A stretch of DNA of 64,000 nucleotides from Myxococcales bacterium. GTDB lineage: Bacteria; Myxococcota; Kuafuiibacteriia; Kuafuiibacteriales; Kuafuiibacteriaceae. A program made the translations under genes and the position numbers. Location of the stretch: contig JAHQVK010000175.1 of NCBI GenBank assembly GCA_019634385.1, forward strand, positions 333 through 64,332, written 5' to 3'. Positions 1 through 61,856 of the stretch are shown here, in pieces (within the stretch, counting starts at the first letter, position 1; each line of letters starts with the position of its first letter). A model generated the notes under the pieces. That model was not told the origin of the DNA. It saw nothing but the letters and a program-made list of their open reading frames with translations, and did no database searches.

Positions 1-63
1 AATACCCCGCTGAGCGCCCACTTGTTGATTCTAACAGAATCAATTCGAGTGGTCTTTGCTGTA
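1..63. repeat. family B element, copy B1 (truncated by window edge)
   Basis: ...cacttgttgattctaacagaatcaattcgagtggtctttgctgtag matches the right half of B. Confidence 0.6.
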
Positions 64-299: not shown

Positions 300-486
300 T
301 AGGGCGTGTCTTCAAACTCCGGCTGCGGAGATGACGCCGTATCCCGTGTTTGTGAGGGTTCGGCCCCGGAGGGAGGGTACTGGATGTACCGGACCGAGTG
401 TCCCGAAAGGGTGGCGAAGCCACCGAGCCCTCACGCATGTCGGAAACAAGTCAGAACGCGGTCCGGAGGTTGAAAACACGCCCTAG
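300..486. repeat. family A MITE-like palindromic element, copy A1 (forward)
   Basis: tagggcgtgtcttcaaactccgg...ccggaggttgaaaacacgccctag. 187 bp. Terminal 13-bp inverted repeats with an imperfect long palindrome. Flanked by TTAG/CTAG. Confidence 0.85.
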
Positions 487-1537: not shown

Positions 1538-2044
1538 ATGATTGAAGTGGCAGGTTTAATTCGTTCTCAGGCATGTTTTTGGTGGTCTTTGGTGCTTTTG
1601 GGGTTGGTCGGAAATTATGCATGTGCAAGTTCGTATGCCCCGGCTGTAACAATGAAGAAAAGACGATGTAAAATCTGTGGAAAGATTGTTGATAGTAGAG
1701 GTAGTCCGGTTAGAGATGTAACGGTAGTTCTTTTTAGCGGCTCATCCCCAGACGACGATGAGATTGTATCTGCTACAACTAATAAAGCCGGAGTCTATGA
1801 GTTTTATGATGACTACTCTGGAATGCCTATTTCAAGTGGAAAATATCTTATAAAGGTAGGAGGGGGGAAGCTTGGTGAGCAAAGGATTAGTATCAGTTTT
1901 GATGGGATATATTTGGCTTTGAAAAAACCTATCCGACTATATCGACCTAATGAGAATGTTGGCCGTTCAATGAACGAGCCACCCGAGGAGAGTGTAGATA
2001 AAGAGTCCACAAGGCCTAACACAGTACCTGTGTATGGAGACTAG
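1538..2044 (+). CDS. secreted protein with carboxypeptidase-regulatory-like domain
   Basis: N-terminal hydrophobic signal (WWSLVLLGLVGNYACA). The stretch GKIVDSRGSPVRDVTVVLFS...TTNKAGVYEF resembles the CarboxypepD_reg fold. Confidence 0.4.
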   Translation: MIEVAGLIRSQACFWWSLVLLGLVGNYACASSYAPAVTMKKRRCKICGKIVDSRGSPVRDVTVVLFSGSSPDDDEIVSATTNKAGVYEFYDDYSGMPISSGKYLIKVGGGKLGEQRISISFDGIYLALKKPIRLYRPNENVGRSMNEPPEESVDKESTRPNTVPVYGD

Positions 2045-2224
2045 GGCGTGCCTCTAAGTCCGGCTGGGAGATGACGCTGTATCCCGTGTTTGTGAGGATT
2101 CGGCCCGGAGGGAGGGTACTGATGTACCGGACTGAGTGGCCCAAAAGGAAGGCGAAGCCATCGGCGCCTCACACATGGGGGAAACAAGTCAGAACGCGGT
2201 CCGGAGGCTAAAGGCGCGCCCTAG
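2042..2224. repeat. family A copy A2 (forward)
   Basis: About 90% identical to A1. Bounded by ctag on both sides. Confidence 0.85.
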
Positions 2225-7780: not shown

Positions 7781-8016
7781 TAGGGCGCGTCTTCCAACTC
7801 CGGCTGCGGAGCTGACGCGGTACAGCAAAGACCCCTTATTGATTCTTGCAGAATCAATAAGGGGTCGCGCAGCCGGGCATAGCCCGGCGTAGAATCAGGA
7901 ACTTGGGTTCAACCCAAGTGATTTCTGCTGTATCCCGCGTTTGTGAGGGTTCGTCCCCTCGGTCGGGTACATCCCGTACCTTCCCTCCGGGGCCGAAGTT
8001 GAAAGACACGCCCTAG
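7781..8016. repeat. family A copy A3 (forward, variant core) carrying nested B2
   Basis: The A termini are intact. The interior is interrupted after gacgcggta by a family-B element. It starts immediately after repeat C1. Confidence 0.8.
7823..7930. repeat. family B copy B2 (reverse), nested in A3
   Basis: cagcaaagaccccttattgattcttgcagaatcaataa...cttgggttcaacccaagtgatttctgctg. Flanked by ta/ta inside A. Confidence 0.8.
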
Positions 8017-8796
8017 CGTGATTGTGCCTAGTGGTTGAATCTCCACAATCAGTGCGGTTTCGGTGCTTGGATGCTCTTTGTTGCTGTCAGTAGGCTTTGG
8101 TGCCGCTTGAGAGTGTGGGAAGGTGTGTACGATTGCTGACTTGGCTTAGTGTTGATTGGTAAAAGGATCGCGCACGGGGTTGTAGAGCGAGGAAAGGGGG
8201 CTGGAATGTGGTGCTAGGTCAGCGAGTTATGGCGATACACAAGTGTTTGCTAAATGTAGGAGCAAAGATGTTGTACGATGGAGCGCGAGTATACGCTCGG
8301 GGGTTGTCGCCATCTTTGGCTATCCAAAGCCGACTGAAGAACTGTCAGGAGAATTCTTGGCACCGCCTGACAGACCCTGTGTCTGCTGAGATGTTGGGTT
8401 TGAAGAGCTACGGGATGGAATCGGAAGTCGATACCTCTCACCAGGGAAGTCGAGTTCGTGGCGAATTAACGTGTGTCTGGATCCTGAAGAAAGTTTGGCT
8501 CCGTTGGTGGCGTTCAATAAGGAGAGGCCAGGTGTTCAGCTTGTGGTTCAAGTTACTTCTATTTGAGTTGATTTCTCTAGGGCGGAGTGACCAGAGCAGA
8601 CCACTATGAGCTGTATCTTATTCGTGGTGAGGGGAGGTCCTGAGTAGGTGTCTTTTGGTACGTAGGAGAGCCGCATAGACTCAGTAATATTTGGCGAGCT
8701 TGCTATGGGCTTGAGGTCGAAGAGCAAGCAGATGTTGACGGAGATCATGCTGAATTTTCGATGAGCATATCTTCCGCGAATAGGTGATAGAGGTAT

Positions 8797-9639
8797 ATGG
8801 TCATGAGGTTACGATACATTTCCGGATTATGGATAGTGTCTATGCTGACGTTTTTGCTGGTTGAGGGCGTTTCTATTGGCGCTGAGCTGGTTGGTGACGA
8901 TGGAGTTCAGTCTACACTGAACCAAGCGAAGTATTACCGGGACAACGGTCGTTTGGCCGAAGCTCGAAGTGAGCTCGATACATGGCTGCGGTGCCATGGT
9001 AACCAGGACAACTTCCACATTCTTGCCGCTCTAGCTCGGGTGCAGTTTGAACAATTAGACTTTGATAACGCCTCCATGACATGGATGAAATTGCAAGGCC
9101 TATCGGAGCCCGAAGAGGTGGCCCCTTGGGTGTCATTCTTTGCTGAAAAGTGGCCGAATCTCGTGGGAGGGCTTGAAATTAAGGGCGATGGTCGTCCGGT
9201 GCTGTTCACTCTCGAACGCGCCGGATTGGTCGCTGACGCGGAGCTCACTAAAGCTTTTCTAGAGCGGGAGAAGCGGGTTCTGAAGCGTCTTACCAATCGA
9301 GTGTTTTATTTGCCAGCTGGGAGGTATCGCATCGACTCCGCATATATTGATGTTGTTGCTGATAGCATTGCGGAGGTATCAGTTTCAGAGCTCAAAATGG
9401 GGCCGGAAGCTTACGAACGAGCGAGGGACTATCCAGATAGCTATTCGTTCGTTTCAGAAGTCCGGACTTGTACGTCATCGTCTATGTTTAGTGATTCGCC
9501 GAAGCCTACAAATTTCTTTAGAAAAACGTGGCCTTGGTGGGTTGGCGGGATTGTGGTGGTGGGAACAGCTGTTGGGATCGCCGCGATGATTTCACCTGAA
9601 GATAACTATGTCATTGATTTCCAAAGAGATGGGAGATGA
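8797..9639 (+). CDS. hypothetical membrane-anchored protein
   Basis: 280-aa ORF with a signal-like N-terminus and a C-terminal TM segment (WWVGGIVVVGTAVGIAAMI). It is immediately followed by the TolB-like gene. Confidence 0.4.
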   Translation: MVMRLRYISGLWIVSMLTFLLVEGVSIGAELVGDDGVQSTLNQAKYYRDNGRLAEARSELDTWLRCHGNQDNFHILAALARVQFEQLDFDNASMTWMKLQGLSEPEEVAPWVSFFAEKWPNLVGGLEIKGDGRPVLFTLERAGLVADAELTKAFLEREKRVLKRLTNRVFYLPAGRYRIDSAYIDVVADSIAEVSVSELKMGPEAYERARDYPDSYSFVSEVRTCTSSSMFSDSPKPTNFFRKTWPWWVGGIVVVGTAVGIAAMISPEDNYVIDFQRDGR

Positions 9640-9646
9640 GTAGAGA

Positions 9647-10885
9647 GTGGGATGGATCGAACTGCTGCTGATCCTTGGCGAAACGATGTCCGCCCAAGCA
9701 CTCTCGCAAGCAAGGCTCCATCCACAATTGACGGCGGTACCGTTAGGTGCGGTAGCACCGGGAGACGTTACTTGTCCTCGATGGTCCAAAGACGGAAGGC
9801 ACATTGCCTTTGAACGTGTATTTCATGCTCAGAAACGAGTGGAACTCTATCTGCTCGAGAATGTTCATAGTGGTCACTCCAGTACCGTTCGGTTGAGTGG
9901 TCAACAATCAGCGGGTAGCAAGGAGGGGCGCCGCTCAGAGGATGGCAAGGGGCGGCTACGCTCATTGTTCAAGGGACTGGAGATTGAGCGATGTCATGAT
10001 CTTGCTTGGGCGACAGAGGATGTGGCGTTTGTCTGCAACGATGGGGGAGAGCAACTATACATAAGACGTGGGAAAAGAAGATCGGTTGCAGTCACTGAGA
10101 AGGGTGTGTCTGCTCAACCAACTTGGTCCGCGGATGGGATGACATTGGTGTTTGTGTCTACTCGGGATGGTTTGGGAGCCCTGCATCAGATTTCGTTTGA
10201 AGGGGACCGTCTTGATGGGCCGAGCCCGCTCCTTAAGCGTTCGGAGAATCTAGAGCTCTACCCACAGTGGCACCCGAAAAAACCTTACTTGTTGTACACA
10301 GCCATGACGTCGGGACGGGGCAGTGATGTTCATTTGCTTTCTGAGATAGCTGCGCAAGCTAAAATCCGCCAACTTGTTAGTACCCCATACGATGAATTTC
10401 ATGCTACTTGGTCCCCAAACGGTCAGAAAATCGCGTTTTATAGAGTAAGAAACCGGGGGGAGGGAGGCCCGAGGCAGACATTGCCACGGGCTCTGACTGC
10501 TGACGAATCTGACATCTGGATTAAAGACGTCAGCGCGGACCAGCCTTCATTTCGATTGGCTTCTGCGGTCCATGTGACTACGGGCGGTCCAGCGTGGAGC
10601 CCGGATGGAGACTGGGTCGTATATACATCGGGGGCCAGTGATCAATTGTTTGCCGCGGAGGCAAAAATTGACGGACAAGTTATAGAAATTCCGTTAGCGA
10701 CTATTTCGAACCGGGAGCCGGTGCTAACTAAGTATCAAGAGCGCTGGTTTGTAGCTTATACCACTCTCGGTGAGGCGAAAAACGACAAACGGATGTGGAG
10801 AAGGCTTTATTGGACTCATCTGGACTCTACGATTTTCAGAGTTGCTGGTGATAAAGAAGACAAACGAAATGGGAATGCCTACTAG
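9647..10885 (+). CDS. TolB-like PD40/WD40 beta-propeller protein
   Basis: Repeated WS(P/A)DG...VF/VY motifs (WSADGMTLVFVSTRDG, WSPNGQKIAFYR, WSPDGDWVVYTS) typical of PD40 repeats. N-terminal signal. Confidence 0.6.
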   Translation: MGWIELLLILGETMSAQALSQARLHPQLTAVPLGAVAPGDVTCPRWSKDGRHIAFERVFHAQKRVELYLLENVHSGHSSTVRLSGQQSAGSKEGRRSEDGKGRLRSLFKGLEIERCHDLAWATEDVAFVCNDGGEQLYIRRGKRRSVAVTEKGVSAQPTWSADGMTLVFVSTRDGLGALHQISFEGDRLDGPSPLLKRSENLELYPQWHPKKPYLLYTAMTSGRGSDVHLLSEIAAQAKIRQLVSTPYDEFHATWSPNGQKIAFYRVRNRGEGGPRQTLPRALTADESDIWIKDVSADQPSFRLASAVHVTTGGPAWSPDGDWVVYTSGASDQLFAAEAKIDGQVIEIPLATISNREPVLTKYQERWFVAYTTLGEAKNDKRMWRRLYWTHLDSTIFRVAGDKEDKRNGNAY

Positions 10886-10886
10886 C

Positions 10887-11072
10887 TAGGGCGTGTCTTT
10901 AACCTCTGGATGTGGAGCTGACGCGGTATCTCGCGCGTGTGAAGGGTCGGTCCCGGAGGGAGGGTACCGGATGTACCGGACCGAGGGGCCCGAAAGGGGG
11001 GCGAAGCCACCGGCCCCTCACAAACGATGGAAACAAGTCAGCACGCGGTCCGGAGGGTAAAGACACGCCCTA
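10887..11072. repeat. family A copy A4 (forward)
   Basis: ctagctagggcgtgtctttaacc...ggagggtaaagacacgccctaa. Confidence 0.85.
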
Positions 11073-11074
11073 AC

Positions 11075-11330
11075 ATTACCTGATTGGTGTTGTCCTGAGA
11101 TGTCTGGGCATCCATTGTTCACAACAGGGGTACCGTGCCATTTTCCGTATGAGACTTCTTTTAGGAACCCAGAAAATTGGTTCCAATTCTGAGTAGAGGA
11201 CGGAAAAGTGCTTTCGGTATTGTCCACACCCCGGACGTTGAGCTCGGCCTGTTGTTTCTCCTGGATAATGTGTTGGAGCCGCTCAAACCCTTGTGAGGAC
11301 TGCTTGGCCTTGTGCCACCGCCATCTGCAT
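11075..11330 (-). pseudogene. IS5-family (IS1031/IS427-like) transposase N-terminal fragment, decayed
   Basis: The minus-strand translation PNCYVANVCRWRWHKAKQSSQGFERLQHIIQ...VDNTESTFP resembles the conserved NRWRKKGVWQRIFE...MIDSTIVRAH block of IS5-group transposases. It is truncated by a stop and has no DDE domain. It lies between repeat copies A4 and B3. Confidence 0.35.
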
Positions 11331-11552
11331 ACATTGGCTACATAACAATTAGGTATTGCGAGGTGGCATTTTAATGTCGGAGGTGGTCTATTACTTGTCC
11401 TCGAGGTACCTTAATATCCAGCAACCTGAGCTTTCCCTTTCTCATCATTTGTCTCTTCGGAGGCTAACTGTGGCTAGTCTCCTACGAGTTCAGACATTCG
11501 GTGGATCCGATATTCGCTATAGTTATTTGCCAACTTTGAGTACACATTGCAT

Positions 11553-11665
11553 ACAGCAGAAATCACTTGGGTTGAACCCAAGTTTCTGCTTCTACTCGGG
11601 CCTATACCCCGCCGCGCGCGCCTTGTTGATTCTTACAACATCAATTCAAGTGGGCTTTGCTGTAG
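11553..11665. repeat. family B copy B3 (forward)
   Basis: acagcagaaatcacttgggttgaacccaagtttctgcttctactcgggcctataccccgccgcgcgcgccttgttgattcttacaacatcaattcaagtgggctttgctgtag. Confidence 0.8.
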
Positions 11666-11781
11666 TTGGTATATATAGCTGCACTTAGTAAGAAATATGG
11701 CGCAGGGGAAATCAAAATATTTCGACCCTGCTACTTCATTATGTTTGAATATGAGTGATACAATACCCTCAGCAGTATGAC

Positions 11782-12246
11782 CTAAAAGCAAAAACTAATG
11801 CGCTTTTCTGACAGTGTGCGCAATTTTTTATCTTTGATAGTTCGCAGCTTGATGAGAACTTTACCACAAGTGGCGCTGCTTTGCTCAATTTGGTGGACTT
11901 TTATTCCAACTAGCTTGCTATCGATGTCAATGAACCGCTCGTAGGGTAGCTTGACGGGGCCATTAACGACCGGTTGAAAGCTCGAGACGGGGGTTTTACA
12001 GTGGGTTTCAACAGACATAGAACTATTCATGAGCAACGGCCAGTTTTCCCGAGAGGTGTCGGCACGCATTATGACTTTACAATGGTACCCATCACTTATG
12101 AGCTCTTGAGTGACAACTGTAGGGAGCTGTGACTTCACGGTGTGTGAGGAGCATCCGTGAGCACTGAGTACCAAAGTCGTAATTCGCAGTACCGAAGTCA
12201 AGCGCCAACACGTTGACCGTAGCTTGAAGGGGAGAGAATGCCTCAT
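11782..12246 (-). CDS. hypothetical small secreted/lipoprotein
   Basis: 154-aa ORF with a signal-like N-terminus ending HGCSS. No motif recognised. Its 5' end overlaps the annotated FIST start, so one of the two starts is probably internal. Confidence 0.3.
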   Translation of the reverse strand: MRHSLPFKLRSTCWRLTSVLRITTLVLSAHGCSSHTVKSQLPTVVTQELISDGYHCKVIMRADTSRENWPLLMNSSMSVETHCKTPVSSFQPVVNGPVKLPYERFIDIDSKLVGIKVHQIEQSSATCGKVLIKLRTIKDKKLRTLSEKRISFCF

Positions 12247-13540
12247 GATCTACCTTTATTATGCTATCGGCGCTTTGGTCCTTAAACTAAGGGGGGTCAG
12301 CCGTGGTTATGCACTGGCGGCTCATTTGGTACCACGCTTATTGGTATTGATGGTCTCGATCTGGATGTGGCTGCAAATGGTTGAGAATTTGTCGACTATT
12401 TTAGCTATGCAGCTTACTACCTTTATCCATCAGCTTGGCGTAGGGTGGAATAGCGCTTTTCCCGACCTAGACTCTGAGACTACCCTAGTTCTTGTATTTG
12501 GCTCCCCTGAGTATCGTGGTTCACCGGATGCAGTGATGGAACTACAGCGAGCCTATCCGCGCTCCGTTGTCATTGGTTGCTCAACAGCGGGGGAGGTAGC
12601 GCAGCACAATGTCAATGATAATAGTTTATCCGTGGCGGTGGCGAAGTTTAGTCATACACCGCTCAGAAGTGCCTATGCCGATGTAGATACAAGACGGTCT
12701 CGAGCGGCGGGCTTTGAATTGGCTCAGCAGTTGAAGAGTCCGGAACTAAAAGGAGTATTCGTTGTCTCTGATGGCTTGCAGGTCAATGGTAGTGACTTGG
12801 TACAAGGGCTCTACGATGGATTAGGTACCGAGGTGCCAGTTTGTGGGGGACTAGCGGCTGATGGTGAACGTTTCCAGCAGACCTGGATTGTGCAACGCGA
12901 CGGCTTGGTAAGCGGTAAAGTTGGTGCTGTTGGTTTCTATGGTGAACGGATAAGGCTTGATTGTGGCTCTAAAGGGGGATGGCAGATTTTCGGTCCCGAG
13001 CGAAAGATAACAAGCGCGGAAGGAAATATCGTCTACACCTTTGATGATCAGTCTGCGCTTGAGCTATATAAAGTCTATCTAGGGGAGCACGCGAATGATT
13101 TGCCAGCAGCGGCACTGTTGTTTCCCTTGTCGGTGCGCCGAAGGCCAAATGGACCTGCGGTGGTTCGGACCATACTATCTACGGATGAAGATAGAAAGTC
13201 CATGACTTTTGCTGGTGATATGCCGGTGGGAGCACGGACACAGTTGATGCGTGCTAGTTTTGATCGACTGATTGATGGGGCGGAGGGGGCGGCGAAGATG
13301 TTGAGTAGTCCGGGTGAGCCGAAAGAGTCTCCCATGCTCTGTGTTCTTGTCAGCTGTGTTGGGCGTAGACTGGTCCTGGGCGAGAGGATTGAAGAAGAAG
13401 TTGAAGCAGTACTTGAGGTCCTGCCCGCAAACGCCCAACAGATTGGCTTTTATGCTTATGGTGAAATATCTCCCGACGTCTCTGGGGTATGTGACTTACA
13501 CAACCAGACCATGACCCTAATGACAATCTATGAGCAATAG
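12224..13540 (+). CDS. FIST-domain sensor protein
   Basis: The body matches the FIST_N/FIST_C pattern (VVIGCSTAGEV..., GVFVVSDGLQVNGSDLV, VCGGLAADG, GFYAYGEISP). The true start is probably an internal Met (12245 or later). It overlaps the downstream histidine kinase start. Confidence 0.65.
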   Translation: MKGRECLMIYLYYAIGALVLKLRGVSRGYALAAHLVPRLLVLMVSIWMWLQMVENLSTILAMQLTTFIHQLGVGWNSAFPDLDSETTLVLVFGSPEYRGSPDAVMELQRAYPRSVVIGCSTAGEVAQHNVNDNSLSVAVAKFSHTPLRSAYADVDTRRSRAAGFELAQQLKSPELKGVFVVSDGLQVNGSDLVQGLYDGLGTEVPVCGGLAADGERFQQTWIVQRDGLVSGKVGAVGFYGERIRLDCGSKGGWQIFGPERKITSAEGNIVYTFDDQSALELYKVYLGEHANDLPAAALLFPLSVRRRPNGPAVVRTILSTDEDRKSMTFAGDMPVGARTQLMRASFDRLIDGAEGAAKMLSSPGEPKESPMLCVLVSCVGRRLVLGERIEEEVEAVLEVLPANAQQIGFYAYGEISPDVSGVCDLHNQTMTLMTIYEQ

Positions 13541-15650
13541 TAAGTATCATAGGGCGCTGAGACGACAGTTGCGCCGCTTAGATATAGATGCGGAGAAGGG
13601 TCCCGAGGATGAGAAAGGATGGCGGGCCTTCTTAGCGGCGGTCAGCCAGGCTTATGTTCATAGTGATCGAGATCGATACTTACTCGAGAGATCGCTTAAC
13701 CTCTCTTTCGTTGAGACCTCGGAGCTGCACCGAAATTTGAACACAGAGCGCGACCGTCTACTTGCTGTGCTTAGGGCGATGACTGATGGTTTGTTTGCAC
13801 TGACCTTGGAGGCAAAGGTTATTGTTGCCAACGAAGCGGCGGCGCGGATGCTAGGTGATTCGGTGTCTACGCTCAATGGGGCGAGCGTGCTCGAGCGATT
13901 TCAGTTCTCCAAGCTCAACCACCGAGAGCTTTTTGAGGCGATTAAGAACGGTGAGCCCTACGAAGAGCAAAATGCCTCACTACATTTGGCATCACGCTGT
14001 ATTGATATATCGTGTTCGCTTACGCCGCTTCATGAACATGGGGAGCTTGTGGGCACTGTATTTGTGTTTCGAGACGTCAGTGAACAGCGACTTGCAAAAT
14101 GTCGCCTTGCCAAGGCGTTGAATGAGGCTCAGGAGGCGGTTAGGGTAAAGTCAAGCTTTCTGGCTAATATGAGTCATGAGATTCGCACGCCAATGAATGG
14201 TATCATTGGTATGACTACACTGCTTCTCGATACTTCGCTGTCCTCTACGCAACGCGAGTTCGCCAAAACGATAGGCAATTCAGCTGACGCACTGCTGGTG
14301 ATTATTAATGATATCTTAGATATCTCAAAGCTAGAGGCCGATAGCCTTGAGTTGGAAGAGGTGGATATTGACTTTGTCCAACTTATTGAAGAGGTGGCGA
14401 ATTTGCTTGCGATTCAGGCCCATCGAAAACGGGTTGAATTCGTAATTCGGCTATCACCGAACATACCTAAGTTGGTCACTGGTGATCCAGGGAGGATACG
14501 GCAGATTCTCCTCAATTTGGTCAGTAATGCTATTAAGTTTACGTCTGTTGGTGAGGTTCGGGTGAGTGTCGATGCGATGATTGATGATGGCGTTGCACTC
14601 ATGGAGTGTGCGGTGAGTGATACTGGTATTGGTATCGAGGCAGAGTCGCAGGATAAACTATTTCGACCGTTCTCTCAAGTTGATGCATCGACAACCCGAA
14701 AGTTTGGAGGGACAGGGCTCGGGTTGGCGATTAGTCATCAGTTGGCGGTTGCTATGGGAGGAGATATAACTTTGTCTAGTGCGCCGGGCGTAGGGTCATG
14801 CTTTACGCTACAGGTGCCTCTTAAAGTAAGCGATTTATCACTGGCGGGGCATAGAATTTCTTGTAAATGGGTTGTTGGACTCCTAGAGGGTAATGATAGT
14901 ACAAGAAATATTTTAAGAACTTATCTGAAGGAATTAGGATGCATAACCGTTGATATATCTCCAGATGTTATAGAGATGCCCAATGTAGACATTGATGTAG
15001 TTATATGTGATATCTATTCCATTTGTATAGATGCAGAAAAACGCCTAGAAAAATGGCATTCTGAGCCAATGTTAGCCAGCGGTGGTTGGATCTTTTTGAC
15101 GAAGGTGACGACCCAAAAAAAAGTACAGGAATTGGCGGATCGGTATGGCGCAAGAGTGTTGCCCAAACCGGTGCAGCGCTCAGCGTTTACCAAACTGGTT
15201 ACCGAAGTGGCATCAGGCAAAGCAATGTCTGGGGTTTCAGGCACAGAAGCGCCAGTTATTCCATTGCCCCAATTTAGCGGAACCGCACTGGTGGTTGACG
15301 ATAGCTCGGTCAATCAGCGGGTAGCTCAGGGATTGCTTAACCGCATCGGAATCAAGACAGAGGTGGCTGACAATGGGGAGGATGCGGTTCAAAAGGTTTG
15401 TACGAAGGCATACGACGTAGTGTTTATGGACTGTCAGATGCCGATTGTAGATGGTTACGAAGCAACTCGGCGTATTCGGCAATATGAAAAGGAACAGGCA
15501 CTAGGTCAGCACCAGCTCATTGTTGCAATGACTGCAAATGCTATGAGTGGAGATGTAGCTCGTTGCTTGGAGTCAGGTATGGATGACTACATGTCTAAGC
15601 CGGTATCACGGGAGCAGCTAATAGAAATGCTTATTCGGCGTATAGGCTGA
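13530..15650 (+). CDS. hybrid sensor histidine kinase/response regulator (PAS-HisKA-HATPase-REC)
   Basis: H-box MSHEIRTPMNGIIGMTTLL. N, G1 and G2 boxes are present (LVSNAIKF, DTGIGI, GGTGLGLAIS). The C-terminal receiver has VVDDSSVNQ...DVVFMDCQMP...MTANAMSGD. Confidence 0.85.
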   Translation: MSNSKYHRALRRQLRRLDIDAEKGPEDEKGWRAFLAAVSQAYVHSDRDRYLLERSLNLSFVETSELHRNLNTERDRLLAVLRAMTDGLFALTLEAKVIVANEAAARMLGDSVSTLNGASVLERFQFSKLNHRELFEAIKNGEPYEEQNASLHLASRCIDISCSLTPLHEHGELVGTVFVFRDVSEQRLAKCRLAKALNEAQEAVRVKSSFLANMSHEIRTPMNGIIGMTTLLLDTSLSSTQREFAKTIGNSADALLVIINDILDISKLEADSLELEEVDIDFVQLIEEVANLLAIQAHRKRVEFVIRLSPNIPKLVTGDPGRIRQILLNLVSNAIKFTSVGEVRVSVDAMIDDGVALMECAVSDTGIGIEAESQDKLFRPFSQVDASTTRKFGGTGLGLAISHQLAVAMGGDITLSSAPGVGSCFTLQVPLKVSDLSLAGHRISCKWVVGLLEGNDSTRNILRTYLKELGCITVDISPDVIEMPNVDIDVVICDIYSICIDAEKRLEKWHSEPMLASGGWIFLTKVTTQKKVQELADRYGARVLPKPVQRSAFTKLVTEVASGKAMSGVSGTEAPVIPLPQFSGTALVVDDSSVNQRVAQGLLNRIGIKTEVADNGEDAVQKVCTKAYDVVFMDCQMPIVDGYEATRRIRQYEKEQALGQHQLIVAMTANAMSGDVARCLESGMDDYMSKPVSREQLIEMLIRRIG

Positions 15651-15671
15651 AATCGCGATATTTCGACGACT

Positions 15672-15858
15672 TAGGGCGTGTTTTTACCCTCCGGATCGCG
15701 TTCTGACTTGTATCCTGCGTTGGTGAGTGGTCGGTGGCTTCGCCACCTTTTCGGGCCCCTTGGCCAGGTAGATCCAGTCCCCTCCCTCCGTGGCCGCCCC
15801 CTCACAAACGTGGGCTACGGCGTCATCTCCGCAGCTGGAGGGTAAAGACACGCCCTAG
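15672..15858. repeat. family A copy A5 (reverse orientation)
   Basis: Reverse complement of the A consensus. Its right terminus shares CTAG with the start of repeat C2. Confidence 0.8.
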
Positions 15859-16033
15859 CAGGCCATCGGAAAAGTGAGTTAGGCGCTTCGCGGGTCCTTT
15901 TTCCGTGGAACGTCCGGACCGGCTTCGCCTTTCATCGGTTGCATACGCCCGGTATGCGCCTTCTTCATCCGGAGCGTTCCACGGAAAAGATACTTCGCGG
16001 ATCACCCATCTCACTTCTCCGATGGCCTGCAAG
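15855..16033. repeat. family C copy C2 (with ~30-bp internal insertion)
   Basis: Same termini (the right end reads cctgcaag). It carries an extra tttcatcggttgcatacgcccggtatgcgcc block. It shares CTAG with A5. Confidence 0.8.
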
Positions 16034-16097
16034 TGAGCACTTTGTTGGTGGAGGTAGGTCTGAGTCGAAGTAAGAGGTGAAAGAAGCAGTATGATTC

Positions 16098-17453
16098 TTG
16101 GTGAAGCCTGCAATAGACTCCGTGAGTAGGCTGGATATGGAAGACTTAGCACTGCAGCGACTGCCGCGACCCAAGCAAAGCGAGCTGATGATTAAGAAGC
16201 TCGGCCCCTGCGAATATCCGTCCCCACTCGAAGTGCGAGGGAGACGGTTTATTGCTGATGATTGCCGAGTAGAGTTGAGCAAGCATATTGTCGGGGGGGT
16301 CCTCAACGAGGAGTTATCGTTTGAGGCGGCTGGTCCCCGGGCCAACGTATTCTTCAACCCAGAGAACACAACCGCGGCATTCGTGACCTGTGGAGGTTTA
16401 TCACCAGGACTAAACAATGTGATTCGATCCGGATACCTTGAGCTATTCTTTAACTATGGAGTGCAGCGTATCTTGGGAATTCATAATGGGTACAGGGGGT
16501 TGAATCCTAAATCTGGTTTGGAACCTACGGTGATGACCCATCGATTTGTACAGGATATCCATTACATGGGTGGTACGGTTTTGGGGAGCTCTCGAGGCGC
16601 GCATGACCCAGTTCTTCTCGTGGATGCCATGGAAGCCCATCAGATTGATATTCTCTTTTGTATTGGGGGGGATGGAACTCAGCGAGGTGCGCATCGGGTC
16701 CAGCAAGAGATTGCCCGGCGAGCTCTGAAGAAATCTGTTGTAGGTATTCCTAAGACTATCGATAATGATGTGCCCTATGTGGAATTGAGCTTCGGCCATG
16801 TGACGGCGCTTGAAGTAGCGGCGGATGTCTTGCGTGGTGCACATGTCGAAGCAAAAGGGGCGCCCAATGGCGTCGGTTTGGTTAAGGTTATGGGCCGGGG
16901 CGCCGGATTTATTGCGGCGGGCGCTGCGCTTGCGAGCCAGGAGGCTAATTTTGTCCTGGTCCCTGAAGTACCCTTCCCTCTAGAGGGAGAAGGAGGCTTC
17001 CTTGATTGTCTAGAACAGCGTCTACTGGCCCGCGATCATGCTCTGGTGGTAGTCGCTGAGGGAGCGGGTCAGCATCTTTTTAACGATACAAGCTCAGAAG
17101 TGGATCAGTCAGGTAATCAGCGGTTTCGAGACATTGGCGTCTTCCTCAGGGATCGAATCAAAGAGCACTTCAAGAGAAAGCGCATTGAACTCAATCTCAA
17201 ATATATTGATCCAAGCTACGCTATTCGCAGCGTACCGGCGAATGCGTGGGATCGCATACTAAGCGATCGAATGGCGAGAGCTGCTGTTCATGCGGCTATG
17301 GCAGGGAAGACGGATACAATGATTGGCTACTGGAGTAATGAGATCGTTCACGTACCTATCTCAGCGGCGGTAGCACAAAAGAAGCAGATGTTTCTGGGTG
17401 GGGATCTTTGGAATGCGGTAATGGCTACCACTGGTCAGCCAGAGTGGTATTAA
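16098..17453 (+). CDS. pfk: 6-phosphofructokinase (long type; ATP versus PPi dependence not decidable)
   Basis: GGLSPGLNNVIRS, GGDGTQRGA and IPKTIDNDV are canonical PFK motifs. Confidence 0.85.
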   Translation: MVKPAIDSVSRLDMEDLALQRLPRPKQSELMIKKLGPCEYPSPLEVRGRRFIADDCRVELSKHIVGGVLNEELSFEAAGPRANVFFNPENTTAAFVTCGGLSPGLNNVIRSGYLELFFNYGVQRILGIHNGYRGLNPKSGLEPTVMTHRFVQDIHYMGGTVLGSSRGAHDPVLLVDAMEAHQIDILFCIGGDGTQRGAHRVQQEIARRALKKSVVGIPKTIDNDVPYVELSFGHVTALEVAADVLRGAHVEAKGAPNGVGLVKVMGRGAGFIAAGAALASQEANFVLVPEVPFPLEGEGGFLDCLEQRLLARDHALVVVAEGAGQHLFNDTSSEVDQSGNQRFRDIGVFLRDRIKEHFKRKRIELNLKYIDPSYAIRSVPANAWDRILSDRMARAAVHAAMAGKTDTMIGYWSNEIVHVPISAAVAQKKQMFLGGDLWNAVMATTGQPEWY

Positions 17454-17464
17454 CAAGATGGCTG

Positions 17465-18529
17465 TTAGCTGCTGTGGGTGCGCCGTTGGCGCACAGCAGC
17501 GGCGAGTTGTTCCAGGACTGGAACGGTATCTTCCCATCCTAGACAGGCGTCGGTGATCGACTGACCATATCGTAGATCCTCGGGCCTGGTGAGGTTTTGC
17601 CGGCCGGCAACCAAGTGACTCTCCAGCATGGTACCAACAAGTGCTTGATTACCCTTAGTGACTTGCTCCGCGAGATCGCCGGCAACTATTGGTTGTCGGC
17701 TGTGATCTTTTTGGCTGTTCGCGTGTGAGCAATCGACCATGATCCCCGTAGAGATTTCAGCGCTGTCGAGATGTTTCTCTAGAATTGAGAGGTGATCGGC
17801 TGAGTAATTAGGGCCAGAGGCGCCTCCACGGAGAATGACGTGGCAGGCGTCGTTACCCTTGGTCGCTACGATGGCAGAGATCCCTTGTTTTGTGACGGAG
17901 AGAAAGTGATGTGGAGCTCGAGCCGCTCGAATGGCATCTACGGCAATGGCTACATCTCCTCCCGTACTATTTTTGAAGCCCACTGCCATCGATAATCCTG
18001 AAGCGAGTTCGCGATGGATCTGGCTCTCTGTCGTACGAGCGCCGATGGCACCCCATGCGACAAGGTCAGCGATAAATTGAGGGCTAATAGTGTCCAAAAA
18101 CTCGGTGCCTACCGGAACCCCAAGTTGCGAGATTGTGAGAACCAAGTTACGAGCGATCCGGAGGCCTTCGTTGATTCGAAAGGTGCCATCTAGGTAAGGA
18201 TCGTTGATAAGTCCTTTCCAACCGACGGTCGTGCGAGGCTTTTCAAAATAGACTCGCATCACAATAAATAGATCGTCTTGTAGGCGTTCAGCGCAAGCTT
18301 TGAGCAGGCGGGCGTATTCCACGGCCGCGCCTGGATCGTGCACGGAGCACGGCCCAACAACCACAAGCAGACGATCATCTTTTTGCTTGACGATATCATC
18401 AACGGTGGAACGCCACTGTCGCACAGCAGTTGCGATTTCCTCGGTTGCGGGAAGTTCCTCCATCAAGATTTGGGGAGGAATCAGAGGCTTGAGTTGGAGT
18501 ATGCGCACATCGTCTGTGGCGGAGGACAT
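17465..18529 (-). CDS. aroG: 3-deoxy-7-phosphoheptulonate (DAHP) synthase, class I alpha
   Basis: LLVVVGPCSVHD, KPRTTVGWKGLINDP and the C-terminal architecture of the AroG/F/H family. 354 aa. Confidence 0.85.
   Translation of the reverse strand: MSSATDDVRILQLKPLIPPQILMEELPATEEIATAVRQWRSTVDDIVKQKDDRLLVVVGPCSVHDPGAAVEYARLLKACAERLQDDLFIVMRVYFEKPRTTVGWKGLINDPYLDGTFRINEGLRIARNLVLTISQLGVPVGTEFLDTISPQFIADLVAWGAIGARTTESQIHRELASGLSMAVGFKNSTGGDVAIAVDAIRAARAPHHFLSVTKQGISAIVATKGNDACHVILRGGASGPNYSADHLSILEKHLDSAEISTGIMVDCSHANSQKDHSRQPIVAGDLAEQVTKGNQALVGTMLESHLVAGRQNLTRPEDLRYGQSITDACLGWEDTVPVLEQLAAAVRQRRTHSS
17468..17500. terminator. hairpin between convergent pfk and DAHP synthase
   Basis: gctgctgtgggtgcgcc-gtt-ggcgcacagcagc is an imperfect inverted repeat lying 15 bp after the pfk stop and overlapping the last codons of the convergent gene. 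Confidence 0.3.
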
Positions 18530-18862
18530 GTCGCCTTACGAGTACGGTGCGCGTCCCAATTCAGCAAGTGTCGCAAATAGCTAGCGCGTTTTATGGGCAT
18601 TGAAGGCTGGTTCTGAGGGGTGATGAACCGGACTGACACCTTCAAAGTGGGTGGTTCCCGCACTTTCGGGGGGGTATTGCCGGAGCGCTGCAAACCGCGT
18701 GATATTCGACGACCGAAATAGAGCTACGACGTTTCTTTTACGTCGGCGTGAAACTATTGCGAAGAATTTGCTTTGGCCGAATGTGCGGACTGGGGGGCAG
18801 GCTAGCCATAGCCCGCTGACTGAGAATCCCGATTAGATAGGTGGCCGCAAGTTACAGGATAT

Positions 18863-19159
18863 TAGGGCGTGTCTTTAAACTCCAGCTGCGGAGATGACGC
18901 TGTACAGCAGAAATCACTTGGGTTGAACCCAGGTTCCTGCTTCTACGCGGGGCTATGCCCCGCTGCGCGACCACTTGTTGATTCTTATAGAATCAACAAG
19001 TGGTGTTTGCTGTATCCCGTGTTTGCGAGGGTTCGGCCCCGAAGGGAGGGTACGGTAAGTACCGGACCGAGGGGCCCAAAAGGGGGGTGAAGCCACCGAC
19101 GCCTCACAAATGAGGGAAACAAGTCAGACCGCGGTCCGGAGTCTAAAGACACGCCCTAG
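18863..19159. repeat. family A copy A6 (forward) carrying nested B4
   Basis: A termini intact. B4 is inserted at the same internal ...gta|tcccgtg site as in A3 but in the opposite orientation. Confidence 0.85.
18905..19012. repeat. family B copy B4 (forward), nested in A6
   Basis: cagcagaaatcacttgggttgaacccaggttcctgcttctacgcggggctatgccccgctgcgcgaccacttgttgattcttatagaatcaacaagtggtgtttgctg. Flanked by ta/ta. Confidence 0.8.
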
Positions 19160-20007
19160 CTAGGTGGAATCATGGACGAGTACCAACCGTAAGAGACGTC
19201 CTAATGAGGGACAATACGGACTCAAGTCTGCAGAGCGAAGATGGAGCCTTTATATCTCCGCCCCGAATACAAAACACCACGAGGTGATCCGCCATTGGGG
19301 GTAAAGTGCTGGCGAAGATAATGTTTCGCGGTGCGCGACTGGTTTGGGGTCTTGTTTTTGGCTCTGCACCAAGCGGACCGACCTCGGCCTCTTGTTGAGG
19401 GGTGCTTACGTCGATTGAGGGATGCGTAAGTTGTTCCATTCTCGCTAGCCCATTGGGGCAAAACTATCCCTGAATGCAGAGCGCCACGGGACTAGAGTGA
19501 TATGTACAGTTTGCTGTACAATAGTTCTACGTAGCCCTAGCATTGATAGTCTCTATGTGACTGGAGTAGTTGGTATGGAGCGGTCACAAAGTTGATGGTT
19601 TTCAATACGCGGTTGCCGAAAGTTGGTCTCAGCGGGGTTTGTGGTCGCGGGGTGTTCTGGCGGTTGAATTGTCGGTTGCTACGACACTTAGGCGGAGTTG
19701 GGCACAAGTACACTATGCTCCGTCCCCGAATGGCGAGGACGAGTCACTAGGTAGGTTATTGACTGATACTGCGTGTGAGTCGGATTCATAGCTTTCTTGT
19801 GTATTGAGACAACGAATGCTTGAGTGTCTACGCTGTCTGTTGGTGAGGGTTGGGTGTTGGAAGGTTATAAAGTGCCTTAATCCGTTGTTGACCAGTTCGT
19901 AGGAGACCCACTTGACAGCTGGCTTGATGTATCGGTTCAAAGTTTCCCAGCATCAATGTGGGGAGGTGCACAGCTGATGTCGGCAGAGCTGGCAAAATTG
20001 ACTGGCT

Positions 20008-20121
20008 ACAGCGGAAATCACTTGGGTTGAATCCAAGTTCCTGCTTCTACGCGGGGCTATGCCCCGCTGCGCGACCCCCATGTTGATTCTTACAGAATCA
20101 ATTCAAGTGGTCTTTGCTGTA
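20008..20121. repeat. family B copy B5 (forward)
   Basis: It has the same structure as B4. It lies at the left edge of the AT-rich leader of the MotAB-helicase island. Confidence 0.8.
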
Positions 20122-20675: not shown

Positions 20676-20680
20676 CCTCT

Positions 20681-27542: not shown

Positions 27543-27724
27543 CTAGCAGCCTGTTGATTTGTCCATGTGTGTAGCTATCGAGCCAGGATTTTCGAGAAAC
27601 GCTCTGACGACGAGGCGAGCGTACCTGGCGGTGCGTGACCGAGGAGAGACTTTTAGTGGTCAGAAAGTTTCACGCAAAGACTGGCCGATAGATGCGTGCA
27701 GGGCTAGATCAACAGGCTGCTAGG
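27543..27724. repeat. family D palindromic element, copy D1
   Basis: ctagcagcctgttgatttgtcc...ggctagatcaacaggctgctag. 182 bp with 16-bp perfect terminal inverted repeats. Confidence 0.8.
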
Positions 27725-27908
27725 GGGTGTCTTTACGCTCCGGCTACGGAGATGATGCCGTGTCCCACGTTTGTGAGGGGTCGTGCTCGGAGGGAGGGTA
27801 CCGGGATGTATTGGGTCGAGTGGCCCGAAAAGGGGGCGAAACCACCGACACCCTCACAAACGCGGGAAAGAGTCAGAACGCGGTCCGGAGTTTATAGACA
27901 CGCCCTAG
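27721..27908. repeat. family A copy A7 (forward)
   Basis: tagggggtgtctttacgctccgg...gtttatagacacgccctag. Shares CTAG with the end of D1. Confidence 0.8.
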
Positions 27909-30961: not shown

Positions 30962-31147
30962 TAGGGCTGTTTTTATACTCCAGCTGTGGAAATGCCGCCT
31001 TAGCCTGCGTTTGTGAGGGGTCAGCGTCGGAGGGAGGGTACCGCACGTACCGGGCCACGAGGCCCGAAAGGGTGGCGAAGCCACCGACTCGTAGCAAATG
31101 CGGGAAACAAGTCAGAACGTGGTTCGGAGTTGCAAGACACGCCATAG
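30962..31147. repeat. family A copy A8 (forward, degenerate)
   Basis: ctagggctgtttttatactccagc...gttgcaagacacgccatag. Diverged about 20%. Confidence 0.65.
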
Positions 31148-31194: not shown

Positions 31195-31307
31195 TACGGC
31201 AAAGACCCCTTGAATTGCTTCTGTAAGAATCACCAAGCGGTCGCGCAGCGGGGCACAGCCCGGCGTAGAAGCAGTCACTTGGGTTCAACCCAAGTGATTT
31301 CTGCTGT
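31195..31307. repeat. family B copy B6 (reverse, degenerate start)
   Basis: ...caaagaccccttgaattgcttctgtaagaatcaccaagcggtcgcgcagcggggcacagcccggcgtagaagcagtcacttgggttcaacccaagtgatttctgctgtag. It lies 48 bp from A8. A solo D-type terminus (atcaacggctgctag, 31172-31187) sits between them. Confidence 0.7.
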
Positions 31308-31504
31308 AGTCTTGAGCTGTCTATCTTTATCATCAATAAGACTCCCTTGCTGACCGGATAGATGTTCGGCTGTCCTCCCAGAACCTATGAGTTGCCGAGC
31401 CGTACTTGGGTAAAGCACAGTATTGTACCCCTCCGATCAACAAGACTTTGAATTACATAAGTCAGCTATTGTCAGCCACCTTTGGCAAGACGCTCCGCAT
31501 TGTT

Positions 31505-31853
31505 GTAGCTTCACAGCCGGTTGATCTAGCCCTGCACGCATCTATCGGCCGGTCTTTCCGTGAAAGGTCCTGACCACTAGCAGGCCATCGGAAAAGTGGG
31601 ATGGGTGATCCGCGAAGTATCTTTTCCGTGGACCGCTCCGGATGAAGAGGGCGCATACAACCGATGAAAGGCGAAGCCGGTCCAGACGTTCCACGGAAAA
31701 AAACCCGCGAAGCGCCTAACTCACTTTTCCGATGGCCTGCTAGAAGTCTCTCCTCGGTCGCGTACCGCCAGGTACGCTCGCCTCGTCGTCAGAGCGTTTC
31801 ACGAAAAGCCTGGCTCGATAGCTACACACAGGGCTAAATCAACCGGCTGTTCA
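31505..31853. repeat. family D copy D2 (reverse orientation relative to D1, split by C3)
   Basis: 31505-31576 and 31745-31853 are the reverse complement of D1 (about 90% identity). C3 is inserted between them. Confidence 0.75.
31577..31744. repeat. family C copy C3 (reverse), inserted inside D2
   Basis: ctagcaggccatcggaaaagtgggatgggtgatccgcgaagtatcttttccgtgg...cacttttccgatggcctgctag interrupts the D sequence at a CTAA site. Confidence 0.8.
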
Positions 31854-36723: not shown

Positions 36724-36838
36724 CTACAGCGGAAATCACTTGGGTTGAACCAAAGTTCCTGCTTCTACGCTGGGCTATGCCGCGCTGCGCGACCCCTTGT
36801 TGATTCTCACAGAATCAATTCAAGTGGTCTTTGCTGTG
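36724..36838. repeat. family B copy B7 (forward)
   Basis: ctacagcggaaatcacttgggttgaaccaaagttcctgcttctacgctgggctatgccgcgctgcgcgaccccttgttgattctcacagaatcaattcaagtggtctttgctgtg. Confidence 0.8.
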
Positions 36839-36891: not shown

Positions 36892-37071
36892 TAGGGCATG
36901 TCTTTAAACTCTGGCTGGGGTGATGACGCTTTATCCAGCGCTTGTGAAGGGCCGGCCCCGGAAGATACTGGATGTACTGGGCCGAGGGCCCGAAAGGGTG
37001 GCGAGCCAACGACCCCTCAAAAATACAGGAAACAAGTCAGAATGCGGTCCGGAGCTTAAAGACACGCCTAA
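36892..37071. repeat. family A copy A13 (forward)
   Basis: ctagctagggcatgtctttaaactctgg...ggagcttaaagacacgcctaa. It lies 54 bp from B7. Confidence 0.8.
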
Positions 37072-46044: not shown

Positions 46045-46220
46045 TATGGCGTGTCTTCAAATTCCGGCCCGCGTTCCTACTTATTTCCCACATGGGTGAG
46101 GGGTCGTTGGCTTCGCCCCCTTTCGGGCCCCTCGGTTAGGTACATCCCGTACCCTTCCTCCGGGGCCGGCCCTTCACAAACACGGGATACGTCGTCATCT
46201 CCGCAGTCGAAGTTTGAAGA
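46045..46220. repeat. family A copy A9 (reverse, right terminus truncated, abutting B8)
   Basis: Reverse-complement A core (ggcttcgccccctttcgggcccctcgg...). It ends at gtttgaaga without a terminal inverted repeat and is joined directly to a 5'-truncated B8. Confidence 0.7.
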
Positions 46221-46221
46221 T

Positions 46222-46309
46222 GAATTGATTCTGTAAGAATCAACAAGTGGTCGCGCAGCGGGGTATAGTCCGGCGTAGAGGCTGGGTTCAACCCCAGTGA
46301 TTTCTGCTG
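46222..46309. repeat. family B copy B8 (reverse, 5' truncated) abutting A9
   Basis: gaattgattctgtaagaatcaacaagtggtcgcgcagcggggtatagtccggcgtagaggctgggttcaaccccagtgatttctgctg. Confidence 0.7.
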
Positions 46310-46321
46310 AATTGTTGACGT

Positions 46322-58453: not shown

Positions 58454-58578
58454 GCTAGGGGCGCGTTGCTGAGTTCGGTCAGGAACTATCGCTAAGCGCC
58501 TGGATCCCTCCGGGGCCAACCCCTCACAAGGCGGGCTACGTGTCAGCTCCGCAGCCGGAGGCTAAAGACACGCCCTGC
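58454..58578. repeat. family A copy A10 (reverse, internally deleted)
   Basis: ctaggggcgcg...ccctccggggccaacccctcacaaggcggg...gcagccggaggctaaagacacgccc. It keeps both ends and lacks part of the core. Confidence 0.55.
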
Positions 58579-61765: not shown

Positions 61766-61856
61766 TACAGCAAAGACCCCTTGGTCCAGACACGGACCCC
61801 TCACAAATGTGGGAAACGAGTCAGAACGCGGTCCGGTGTTTGAAGACACATCCTAA
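61766..61856. repeat. composite fragment: B-like terminus joined to right half of A (A11)
   Basis: ctacagcaaagacccc (B end) followed by ccctcacaaatgtgggaaacgagtcagaacgcggtccggtgtttgaagacacatcctaa (A right arm). Confidence 0.5.

Follow-up and report, generated by a model that had tools for sequence, protein, structure and literature searches.

Two dispersed repeats of one family, A, are each interrupted by a repeat of a second family, B, at the same TA dinucleotide, which raises the question whether B inserted twice independently, whether a single composite was copied, and whether B prefers A as a target. Both structures lie in a 64-kb stretch of ordinary chromosomal DNA (the window, analysed at its full length) from the MAG of an uncultured Myxococcales bacterium. 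At least four TA-flanked families are present in the window, A (about 186 bp), B (about 108 bp), C (145-177 bp) and F (about 175 bp), with 13, 9, 3 and 2 copies or fragments in 64 kb, respectively, each in a different intergenic context. Together they account for 3,697 of 11,639 nt (32%) of the non-coding DNA of the window, the same few intergenic gaps hold pile-ups of all families, and further A and B copies were found in 7 kb beyond the window.

All four families are non-coding and fall within the size range of MITEs (about 50-500 bp). Their translated frames yielded only stops or short peptides, a six-frame peptide search of the elements returned no homologous proteins, and ORFs overlapping them had no Pfam match; among the 40 ORFs scanned, three in MITE regions or large spacers were without one. 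Rfam covariance models gave 0 matches at gathering thresholds across the whole window. Terminal inverted repeats are present in A, B, C and F. About 28 nt of each A terminus are predicted to pair with the opposite end, the whole of A forming a long hairpin, and the ends of C are predicted to pair over more than 20 nt. F carries GCAGCCTGTTGAT and ATCAACAGGCTGC at its opposite termini and B carries CAGCAGAAATCACTTG and CAGCAAAGACCACTTG, the inverted termini of B being 16 nt long. Predicted folding of A, B and C was far better than that of shuffled sequences (z -3.9 to -8.2). The B terminus motif CAGCARARAYCACTTG was found 15 times with up to 2 mismatches versus 0.29 expected, and the B termini are thus not due to chance. 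By size, non-coding nature, inverted ends and copy number, A, B, C and F are MITEs.

Repeats of the REP/BIME or REPIN type are imperfect palindromes of 20-40 nt that occur without target duplication and with a RAYT gene. This class was rejected for the present elements, which measure 108-186 bp and have a TA duplication, and no Y1/RAYT-like ORF was seen among the scanned ORFs.

The A copies were compared in a MAFFT alignment (n=13), which was repeated with B removed, and are 69-87% identical to one another. Solo copies on the forward strand are the full-length A1 (300..485), A2 (2042..2223), A4 (10887..11072, directly 3' of the stop codon of the ORF at 9647-10885), A7 (27721..27907), A8 (30962..31146) and A9 (36892..37070); A5 (15672..15857) is solo on the reverse strand. 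Reduced copies are A10 (46045..46220, reverse), which lacks its first approximately 10 nt, the half copy A11 (58505..58576, reverse), the right half A12 (61786..61855, forward) and A13 (63727..63819, forward), which is short and internally deleted with both termini kept. Family B is more uniform, with copies 84-95% identical to one another. B3 (11552..11664, forward), B5 (20007..20121, forward) and B6 (31195..31308, reverse) are solo with TA on both sides, and solo B7 (36725..36838, forward) has TA on the left and TG-TA on the right. B1 (1..63, forward) is a right part cut by the start of the window, B8 (46221..46311, reverse) lacks its last approximately 20 nt and is fused to A10, and a 19-nt end fragment, TA-CAGCAAAGACCCCTTGG (61766..61785, forward), is fused to A12.

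The two nested B copies are each 108 bp long. The left arm of A3 (7781..7822, forward) reads TA, GGGCGCGTC...GACGCGG and TA, this last TA (7821-7822) being the left copy of the target duplication; B2 (7823..7930, reverse strand, CAGCAAAG...TTTCTGCTG) follows, and the right part of A3 (7931..8015, forward) begins with the right duplication copy (TA 7931-7932) and TCCCGCG. The left arm of A6 (18863..18904, forward) ends in GACGCTG and the left copy of the duplication (TA 18903-18904), B4 (18905..19012, forward, CAGCAGAAATC...TGTTTGCTG) comes next, and the right part of A6 (19013..19158, forward) runs from TA 19013-19014 through TCCCGTG to GACACGCCC-TA. At the corresponding position, the alignment gives a single TA in A1, A2 and A10 (GTATCCCG), A4 (GTATCTCG) and A13 (GTATCCGG). 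A1 (GACGCCG-TA-TCCCG), A2, A4 and A13 (GGCCG-TA-TCCGG) are empty sites, and in A7 the site is mutated to TG. The intact site thus reads GACGCnG-TA-TCCCG, and A3 and A6 read GACGCnG-TA-[B]-TA-TCCCG. An earlier note on this DNA had claimed that B duplicates a TA at this site and that the two copies lie in opposite orientations; the alignment confirms the former, and B2 is indeed reverse and B4 forward. Since the solo copies act as empty sites, the nested copies provide internal proof of mobility, present or recent, and of the TA duplication.

The same mode was observed for C inside F. Intact F1 (27544..27722, forward, TA-GCAGCCTGTTGAT...ATCAACAGGCTGC-TA) is the empty site, GACTTT-TA-GTGGTCAG, and F2 on the reverse strand is split into halves at 31509..31579 and 31741..31853 by C3 (31578..31742, reverse), giving GACTTC-TA-[C]-TA-GTGGTCAG with the TA duplicated by C. 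Other elements abut: C2 (15856..16032, forward) shares the flanking TA at 15856-15857 with A5, F1 shares that at 27721-27722 with A7, and C1 (7632..7777, forward, TA-GCAGGCCATCGG...CCGATGGCCTGC-TA) lies 3 nt from A3.

A3::B2 and A6::B4 are known from one short-read MAG assembly, and the nested structures might be chimeric joins made by a metagenome assembler across dispersed repeats. An independent assembly from the same population (Logan SRR12681089) spans neither composite and breaks before reaching them, its contigs ending inside MITEs (A2, C1 and a C copy at the end of contig L003), as expected of dispersed repeats. Repeat chimeras, however, join at shared sequence, and A and B share none; moreover, the four junctions all differ, each with an exact TA duplication at a position that holds only one TA in solo copies. 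The two assemblies also agree by at least 99.9% over their 17.5 kb overlap, which includes A11, A12 with its B fragment, and A13. An artefact is therefore extremely unlikely.

The identical junctions, with the same TA and the same duplication, could also have come from one ancestral A::B composite that was copied whole and in which recombination between the 16-nt inverted termini of B later reversed its orientation. Against this stands the finding that A6 is closer to the solo copies A1 and A2 (87% identity) than to A3 (77%), and the left arms alone agree (A3-A1 90%, A6-A1/A5 92%, A3-A6 85%). B2 and B4 are likewise not mutual nearest relatives (B2-B4 89%, B4-B5 93%, B2-B5/B7 90%). A3 has a different internal architecture, being a short form of A in which the central segment is inverted and the right arm truncated, and no excision footprint was seen at the site in solo A copies. 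A single copied composite is very improbable. As far as can be read from the aligned copies, A3::B2 and A6::B4 are independent events and not copies of one composite, in line with the two independent insertions that had been proposed; identity matrices and the differing architecture of A3 and A6 both bear this out.

The enzyme that moves these elements was approached from the target sites and the termini. A, C and F are flanked by Y-TA-R, mostly C-TA-G, and B only by N-TA-N. In A, the inner G/C is constant and the outer bases are variable, so that the duplication would be TA and not CTAG; from constant TA flanks and variable outer bases, we infer that A and F also duplicate TA. As the first base of A, C and F is G and the last is C, insertion into C-TA-G would recreate CTAG on both sides. 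B ends in TA-CAG...CTG-TA, as Tc1-type elements do. IS630 targets CTAG and duplicates TA. TA duplication is a hallmark of the IS630 family (PMC3606827, PMC2229807).

The IS630/Tc1-mariner assignment made in the earlier note fits the TA duplication and the B termini. The search for the enzyme itself, run on 40 window ORFs with Pfam, found no transposase, and no HTH plus DDE/D (DDE_3-type) gene was present in the window or in the further sequences L001, L003 and L004. An autonomous element with CAGCAGAAATCACTTG-like ends was not found in the DNA examined, scans of genome and metagenome collections with the B pattern gave no match, and a plasmid collection held no match to the A6::B4 composite. 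Because the window holds no transposase gene, an IS630/Tc1-mariner-type enzyme would act in trans, which the TA duplication of 2 bp and the nature of the termini make plausible.

A mover outside this group, particularly for A, C and F, is a rather unlikely alternative, for instance an IS5-family subgroup with 2-4-bp duplications at YTAR-like sites. IS5-family ends often start with GG or GA, some subgroups make such duplications, and A, C and F begin with GG or GC in their Y-TA-R (mostly CTAG) sites; the lack of an IS630-type gene among the scanned ORFs points the same way. Yet both cases with an empty site for comparison, B in A and C in F, show a duplication of exactly 2 bp (TA), the CTAG target is also that of IS630, and the B ends resemble those of Tc1-type elements.

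The region is very probably one of TA-duplicating MITEs in intergenic spacers, with B having entered A twice independently and a TA-specific DDE transposase presumed to be encoded elsewhere. At least four families of non-autonomous transposons with inverted repeats would have spread into the spacers, all inserting at TA and duplicating it. A copies would have been present first, and the younger family B would then have inserted twice, once in each orientation, into the TA of GACGCnG-TA-TCCCG in the A left arm, giving A-left/TA/B/TA/A-right, with C entering F in the same mode. That B copies are more alike (84-95%) than A copies (69-87%) is consistent with B being younger. The elements encode nothing; their cut-and-paste movement would presumably depend on an IS630/Tc1-mariner-type DDE transposase whose gene lies elsewhere in the genome and which recognises the inverted repeats at their ends. 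Clustering and nesting most likely reflect three things: insertions may be tolerated only in a few intergenic gaps, existing MITE DNA may serve as a harmless landing pad, and every insertion would add a new TA site at each of its two borders.

Beyond these causes, the B transposase may prefer the left-arm TA of A through local sequence, distortion or a cruciform, which would add to the explanation above. Two clean events and one degenerate one all fall on one of about five conserved internal TA columns of A, the others being unused. The degenerate case, a third A copy (L003:33-77), lies shortly beyond the window: its homology ends exactly at the same TA, with a B copy of an unrelated lineage 14 nt further, and it is rearranged and without clean TA flanks. 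With only about five conserved TAs in A, of which the used column holds about 23% of A's TAs, a second insertion at the same site has a probability of about 0.2 (Σp²=0.21), and three events in one column, the degenerate case included, one of about 0.04 (Σp³=0.04). The predicted single-strand fold of A1 places the TA in an irregular, weakly paired part of the hairpin, but the predicted fold of A4 around the site differs, and IS630/Tc1 enzymes integrate into duplex DNA.

Close spacing between the families, reported before, was borne out: the gap is 48 nt between A8 and B6 and 53 nt between A9 and B7, and B8 and A10, both truncated, are fused to each other. The earlier count of five A-associated B copies out of eight now stands at six of nine inside A or within 57 bp of it, compared with 25% of candidate TAs (p≈0.01 for this count and p≈0.01-0.03 for proximity to A overall, the threshold being post hoc and the null crude). 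The strong preference for the A palindrome that had been drawn from it is not established, as reuse of the same site has p≈0.21 and the two of nine B copies inside A are at random expectation (p≈0.25 for random TA choice in non-coding DNA). The flanks of other B and B-like insertions also have no common motif beyond TA.

A relative whose DAHP synthase is 80% identical offers a comparison, as its locus contains at least eight TA-flanked B-like copies, about 75% identical, in 21 kb. They cluster as densely as B does in the window, and no family A was seen in this 21-kb locus, which speaks against a preference for A. A true hotspot, at which B would favour this one TA of A over and above the causes listed, seems possible but clearly the less likely reading. 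That B or its transposase recognises this one left-arm TA specifically, making one non-autonomous element the dedicated parasite of another, is doubtful.

Nested and clustered MITEs are already described and are ordinary behaviour of such elements. RUP of Streptococcus pneumoniae, a non-coding MITE of 107 bp with inverted ends, targets TA, and its movement has been ascribed to IS630-Spn1 in trans (PMC2229807). In the pneumococcus, members of different MITE families are found clustered and inserted in each other, which has been put down to either shared site preference or regional tolerance (PMC3049150). RUP, BOX and SPRITE thus show the same pattern and leave the same alternative of preference versus tolerance as found here, with unrelated sequences and a Firmicutes instead of a Myxococcota host. 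The partner IS of RUP is known, whereas none was found for the window families; in contrast to the pneumococcal elements, all four window families sit at TA, and the same TA of A was used twice in opposite orientations.

In plants, Stowaway uses TA and Tc1/mariner enzymes. PMC5172404 summarises multimers (Jiang & Wessler 2001) nested by independent insertions, with some families as preferred targets, and in such MITE-in-MITE multimers the Stowaway/Tourist elements resemble the present case. They are eukaryotic and reach thousands of copies, and preference could therefore be shown statistically there, as opposed to two to three events in about 71 kb here.

A mobile element at one defined position within another dispersed palindromic repeat is also found in bacteria. 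IS1397 and ISKpn1 are autonomous IS that insert into REP/BIME units with demonstrated site specificity and different duplications; unlike them, B is itself non-autonomous, and its specificity is putative. Correia elements duplicate TA. Correia/NEMIS of Neisseria and Nezha of cyanobacteria, bacterial MITEs of 100-160 bp, have inverted ends and are numerous in intergenic DNA like the window families, with which they share no sequence similarity. Nezha is attributed to an ISNpu3-like IS (cited in PMC3049150), and functional motifs described for Correia comprise an IHF site, promoters and RNase III sites (PMC2229807, PMC3049150).

A, B, C and F are new families, but their biology is that already described for pneumococcal and plant MITEs, and genuinely new biology would follow only if a real hotspot were demonstrated genome-wide. 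In that case, the three independent hits on a single TA out of five would be the first indication that, in bacteria, structure or sequence can guide one MITE to another. The nesting orders the families, with B younger than A, and implies TA-specific transposase activity in an uncultured Myxococcales lineage; with B relatives also in a second genome, the family may extend through the whole lineage. As MITEs make up about one third of the non-coding DNA and are the site of assembly breaks, knowing them helps the assembly and annotation of MAGs.

The window, with a G+C content of 51%, is a segment of bacterial chromosome carrying housekeeping genes, and its genes include those for a FIST protein with a hybrid histidine kinase, phosphofructokinase, DAHP synthase, BshC, a P-type ATPase, and isocitrate dehydrogenase. 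Four families of TA-flanked MITEs were delimited by a repeat search and by blastn with seed copies. Family A (~186 bp, termini TA-GGGCGTGTCTTTAAACTCCGG...CCGGAG..TAAAGACACGCCC-TA) is present in 13 copies or fragments, family B (~108 bp, TA-CAGCAGAAATCACTTGGGTTGAACCC...CAAGTGGTCTTTGCTG-TA, also given as TA-CAGCAGAAAYCRCTTG...CAAGYGGTYTYTGCTG-TA) in nine, family C (145-177 bp, TA-GCAGGCCATCGGAAAAGTGAG...CCGATGGCCTGC-TA) in three, and family F (~175 bp, TA-GCAGCCTGTTGAT...ATCAACAGGCTGC-TA) in two. Together they occupy 3,697 of the 11,639 non-coding bases of the window (32%), and once they were masked no further repeat family was left in its non-coding DNA.

The earlier note had claimed that family B entered family A twice at the same TA, in opposite orientations and with duplication of this TA. 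An alignment that took in all A copies and was repeated with B removed confirmed this. Solo A copies, which lack B, hold a single TA in GACGCnG-TA-TCCCG, whereas the two composites hold two. The junctions read GACGCGG-TA-[7823-7930, B reverse]-TA-TCCCGCG in A3 (the composite A3::B2, 7781-8015) and GACGCTG-TA-[18905-19012, B forward]-TA-TCCCGTG in A6 (A6::B4, 18863-19158), and both insertions fall in one alignment column of A.

The proposal that these were two independent insertions rather than one copied composite was likewise borne out by identity matrices and by the architecture of A3 compared with A6. A6 is 87% identical to the solo copies A1 and A2 and only 77% identical to A3. With the left arm alone, A3 is nearest to A1 (90%) and A6 to A1 and A5 (92%), while A3 and A6 share 85%. 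The inserted elements B2 and B4 are 89% identical, B4 being nearer to B5 (93%) and B8 (92%) and B2 nearest to B5 and B7 (90%). A3 also differs in being short, with a central segment inverted relative to the other copies and a right arm reduced to the terminal ~16 nt. Copying of one composite, with a later flip of B, was rejected on the identity matrices, and solo A copies showed no extra bases as excision footprints at the insertion site. Thus, identities, A3 architecture, and the lack of footprints together make such a history unlikely, and two separate insertions are preferred. Identity within B is 84-95% versus 69-87% within A, and this greater likeness fits a younger B family entering older A copies. 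A3 and A13 (63727-63819) are short A forms with both termini, and the inverted centre of A3 (~40 nt) matches A5 and A10 on the opposite strand.

From run SRR12681089, an independent Logan assembly provided two contigs that belong to the same population. L003 matches window positions 51955-64000 at 99.975% and extends 7.1 kb further, L004 matches 2184-7655 at 99.89%, and neither spans A3::B2 or A6::B4. Their ends lie inside MITEs, namely A2 (~2184), C1 (~7655), and another C copy (L003:1), as would be expected of dispersed repeats; MITEs at this locus fragment short-read assemblies. The 7 kb beyond the window contain two more A copies. In a solo one (L003:3066-3220), the site has mutated to CA. 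In the other (L003:33-202), homology to the A left arm ends exactly at the same TA; 14 nt (GCAGTAGGCCACGT) and a forward B come next, and no right part of A is present; a C-element end lies just upstream, where the contig stops (L003:1-246). Its B is nearest to B6 (86%) and its A arm to A1 and A5 (82%), so it is not a copy of either composite, but it is rearranged and has no clean TA flanks.

Nesting belongs to the locus at large and not to the A/B pair. C3 (31578-31742) is nested in F2 (31509-31853). Intact F1 (27544-27722) has one TA at this point, GAGACTTT-TA-GTGGTCAG, and F2 has two, reading GAGACTTC-TA-[C3]-TA-GTGGTCAG. Other elements abut through one common flanking TA, as do A5 and C2 (CACGCCC-TA-GCAGGCC, 15856-15857) and F1 and A7 (GGCTGC-TA-GGGGGTG, 27721-27722). 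Isolated F-type ends without the rest of the element (ATCAACGGCTGC-TA-G and CATCGGCTGC-TA-G, 31170-31190 and 29850-29862) also occur, and one lies between A8 and B6.

Outside the flanking TAs of A, a pyrimidine stands at the left and a purine at the right, mostly as C-TA-G, and the first and last bases of the element (G and C) are constant. A 4-bp CTAG duplication was considered for A and rejected, since half of the copies have different 4-mers at left and right, with the inner G and C constant; the duplication is thus TA within a YTAR/CTAG-like target. The first base of A, C, and F is G and the last is C, so that an insertion into C-TA-G remakes CTAG at both new borders. The remade CTAG might be the reason why A, C, and F abut via shared TAs and could seed such arrays. 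For B and the B-like elements of a relative, no motif beyond TA was common to the insertion flanks in the window and the relative genome. In the window, three occurrences of CTAGCTAG were counted versus 0.57 expected, all of them immediately next to an A end (10882-10889, 19156-19163, and 36887-36894), and at 10882 the first TAG is the stop codon of a gene. TAGCTA occurs 21 times versus 9.3 expected, with 10 occurrences in the non-coding 18%. These may be excision footprints of TA elements with GC...GC ends, whose 2-nt GC overhangs are self-complementary, or alternatively may reflect an extended YTAGCTAR target.

In the closest other genome available, a 6.05-Mb ENA contig with a DAHP synthase 80% identical, a 21-kb locus (L001) contains at least eight copies or fragments of a B-like family (TA-CAGCAGAAACCGCTTGAGTTGAAC...CAAATGGTCTTTGCTG-TA) that is ~75% identical to B. 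They are intergenic and tightly clustered, with four in a 1.5-kb gap (15977-16505), and these 21 kb showed no A, C, or F. The subterminal hairpin of B is kept in the relative by a two-sided change (GGG/CCC to GAG/CTC), CTTGGGTT/AACCCAAG in the window versus CTTGAGTT/AACTCAAG in the relative. The left 39 nt of B (for example 11552-11592; L001:14086-14120) form a near-perfect local palindrome that includes the terminal repeat.

The elements have a 2-bp TA duplication, inverted termini, and no coding capacity, and they were inserted independently several times and in both orientations, with a related family in a second genome. No protein homologous to a 965-aa concatenate of stop-free six-frame peptides of A1, A4, B5, and B2 was found at E≤0.001 among 5.8 billion proteins, and Rfam gave no match to the window. 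No transposase was found among 40 window ORFs scanned with Pfam. The large unannotated spacers (8016-8796 and 19160-20680) held only short ORFs and no transposase remnants, and the sole spacer ORF scanned with Pfam (8208-8609) was without a match. The A6::B4 composite had no blastn match in 72,556 plasmids, and the B pattern, both exact and in a degenerate form covering the variant of the relative, had none in genome and metagenome contig collections. As a separate observation, window positions 20681-27440 (+) hold a possible Zorya-like defence operon, which encodes a MotA/ExbB-like protein, an OmpA/MotB-like protein (PADLOC ZorB1, E=4.6e-15), and a 1416-aa AAA_11/AAA_12 helicase that partially matches PDC-S37, MkoA, and Hhe in PADLOC.

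The ends of B, TA-CAG...CTG-TA, resemble Tc1-type ends. The elements were probably moved by an IS630/Tc1-mariner-type DDE transposase acting in trans. Duplication of TA is a hallmark of this family (PMC3606827), and a bacterial precedent is RUP, a MITE that targets TA and is moved by an IS630 member (PMC2229807). For A, C, and F, with their CTAG-like borders, an IS5-family enzyme of the short-duplication subgroups is a possible mover.

The earlier note also saw a strong preference of B for the A palindrome. The proximity on which this was based stood, with B6 at 48 nt from A8, B7 at 53 nt from A9, and a truncated B8 fused to a truncated A10 (46045-46311, both partners truncated). The B8/A10 junction would match the remnant of a ~23-nt deletion across a TA-sharing B/A abutment. 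Likewise, 19 nt of a B end (61766-61785) run directly into A12, the right half of an A copy (fusion 61766-61855, both partners truncated). The preference itself is less secure. Non-coding, non-B DNA of the window contains 527 TA sites, of which 56 (10.6%) are inside A and 131 (25%) inside A or at most 57 bp away. Two of nine B copies inside A are as random choice gives (binomial p≈0.25), whereas six of nine in A or no more than 57 bp from it give p≈0.01 (five of eight, p≈0.03), with a threshold set after seeing the data and a null that takes no account of selection on promoters and small genes. Five conserved internal TA columns of A are present in 8, 11, 10, 11, and 7 of 13 copies, and the chance of one shared column is 0.21 for two insertions and 0.04 for three. 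In the predicted single-strand fold of A1, the hairpin is irregular where the insertion TA lies, but the predicted fold of A4 differs. All intergenic gaps with B also hold A, yet nearly every sizeable gap holds A, and F fragments lie between A8 and B6 and between A9 and B7; the gaps are mixed MITE graveyards. A site preference of B for A is therefore possible but rather unlikely, and the simpler reading is that permissive gaps and TAs are few and MITE DNA serves as a harmless landing pad.

Pneumococcal MITE families cluster and insert into one another as here, and shared site preference or regional tolerance was offered as the cause of clustering (PMC3049150). In the part of the literature that summarises Jiang & Wessler 2001 (PMC5172404), more than 10% of rice MITEs are described as multimers, with nested multimers arising from independent insertions, and plant MITEs as preferentially targeting other MITEs. 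Here, then, new families in a new lineage show a behaviour that is already known.
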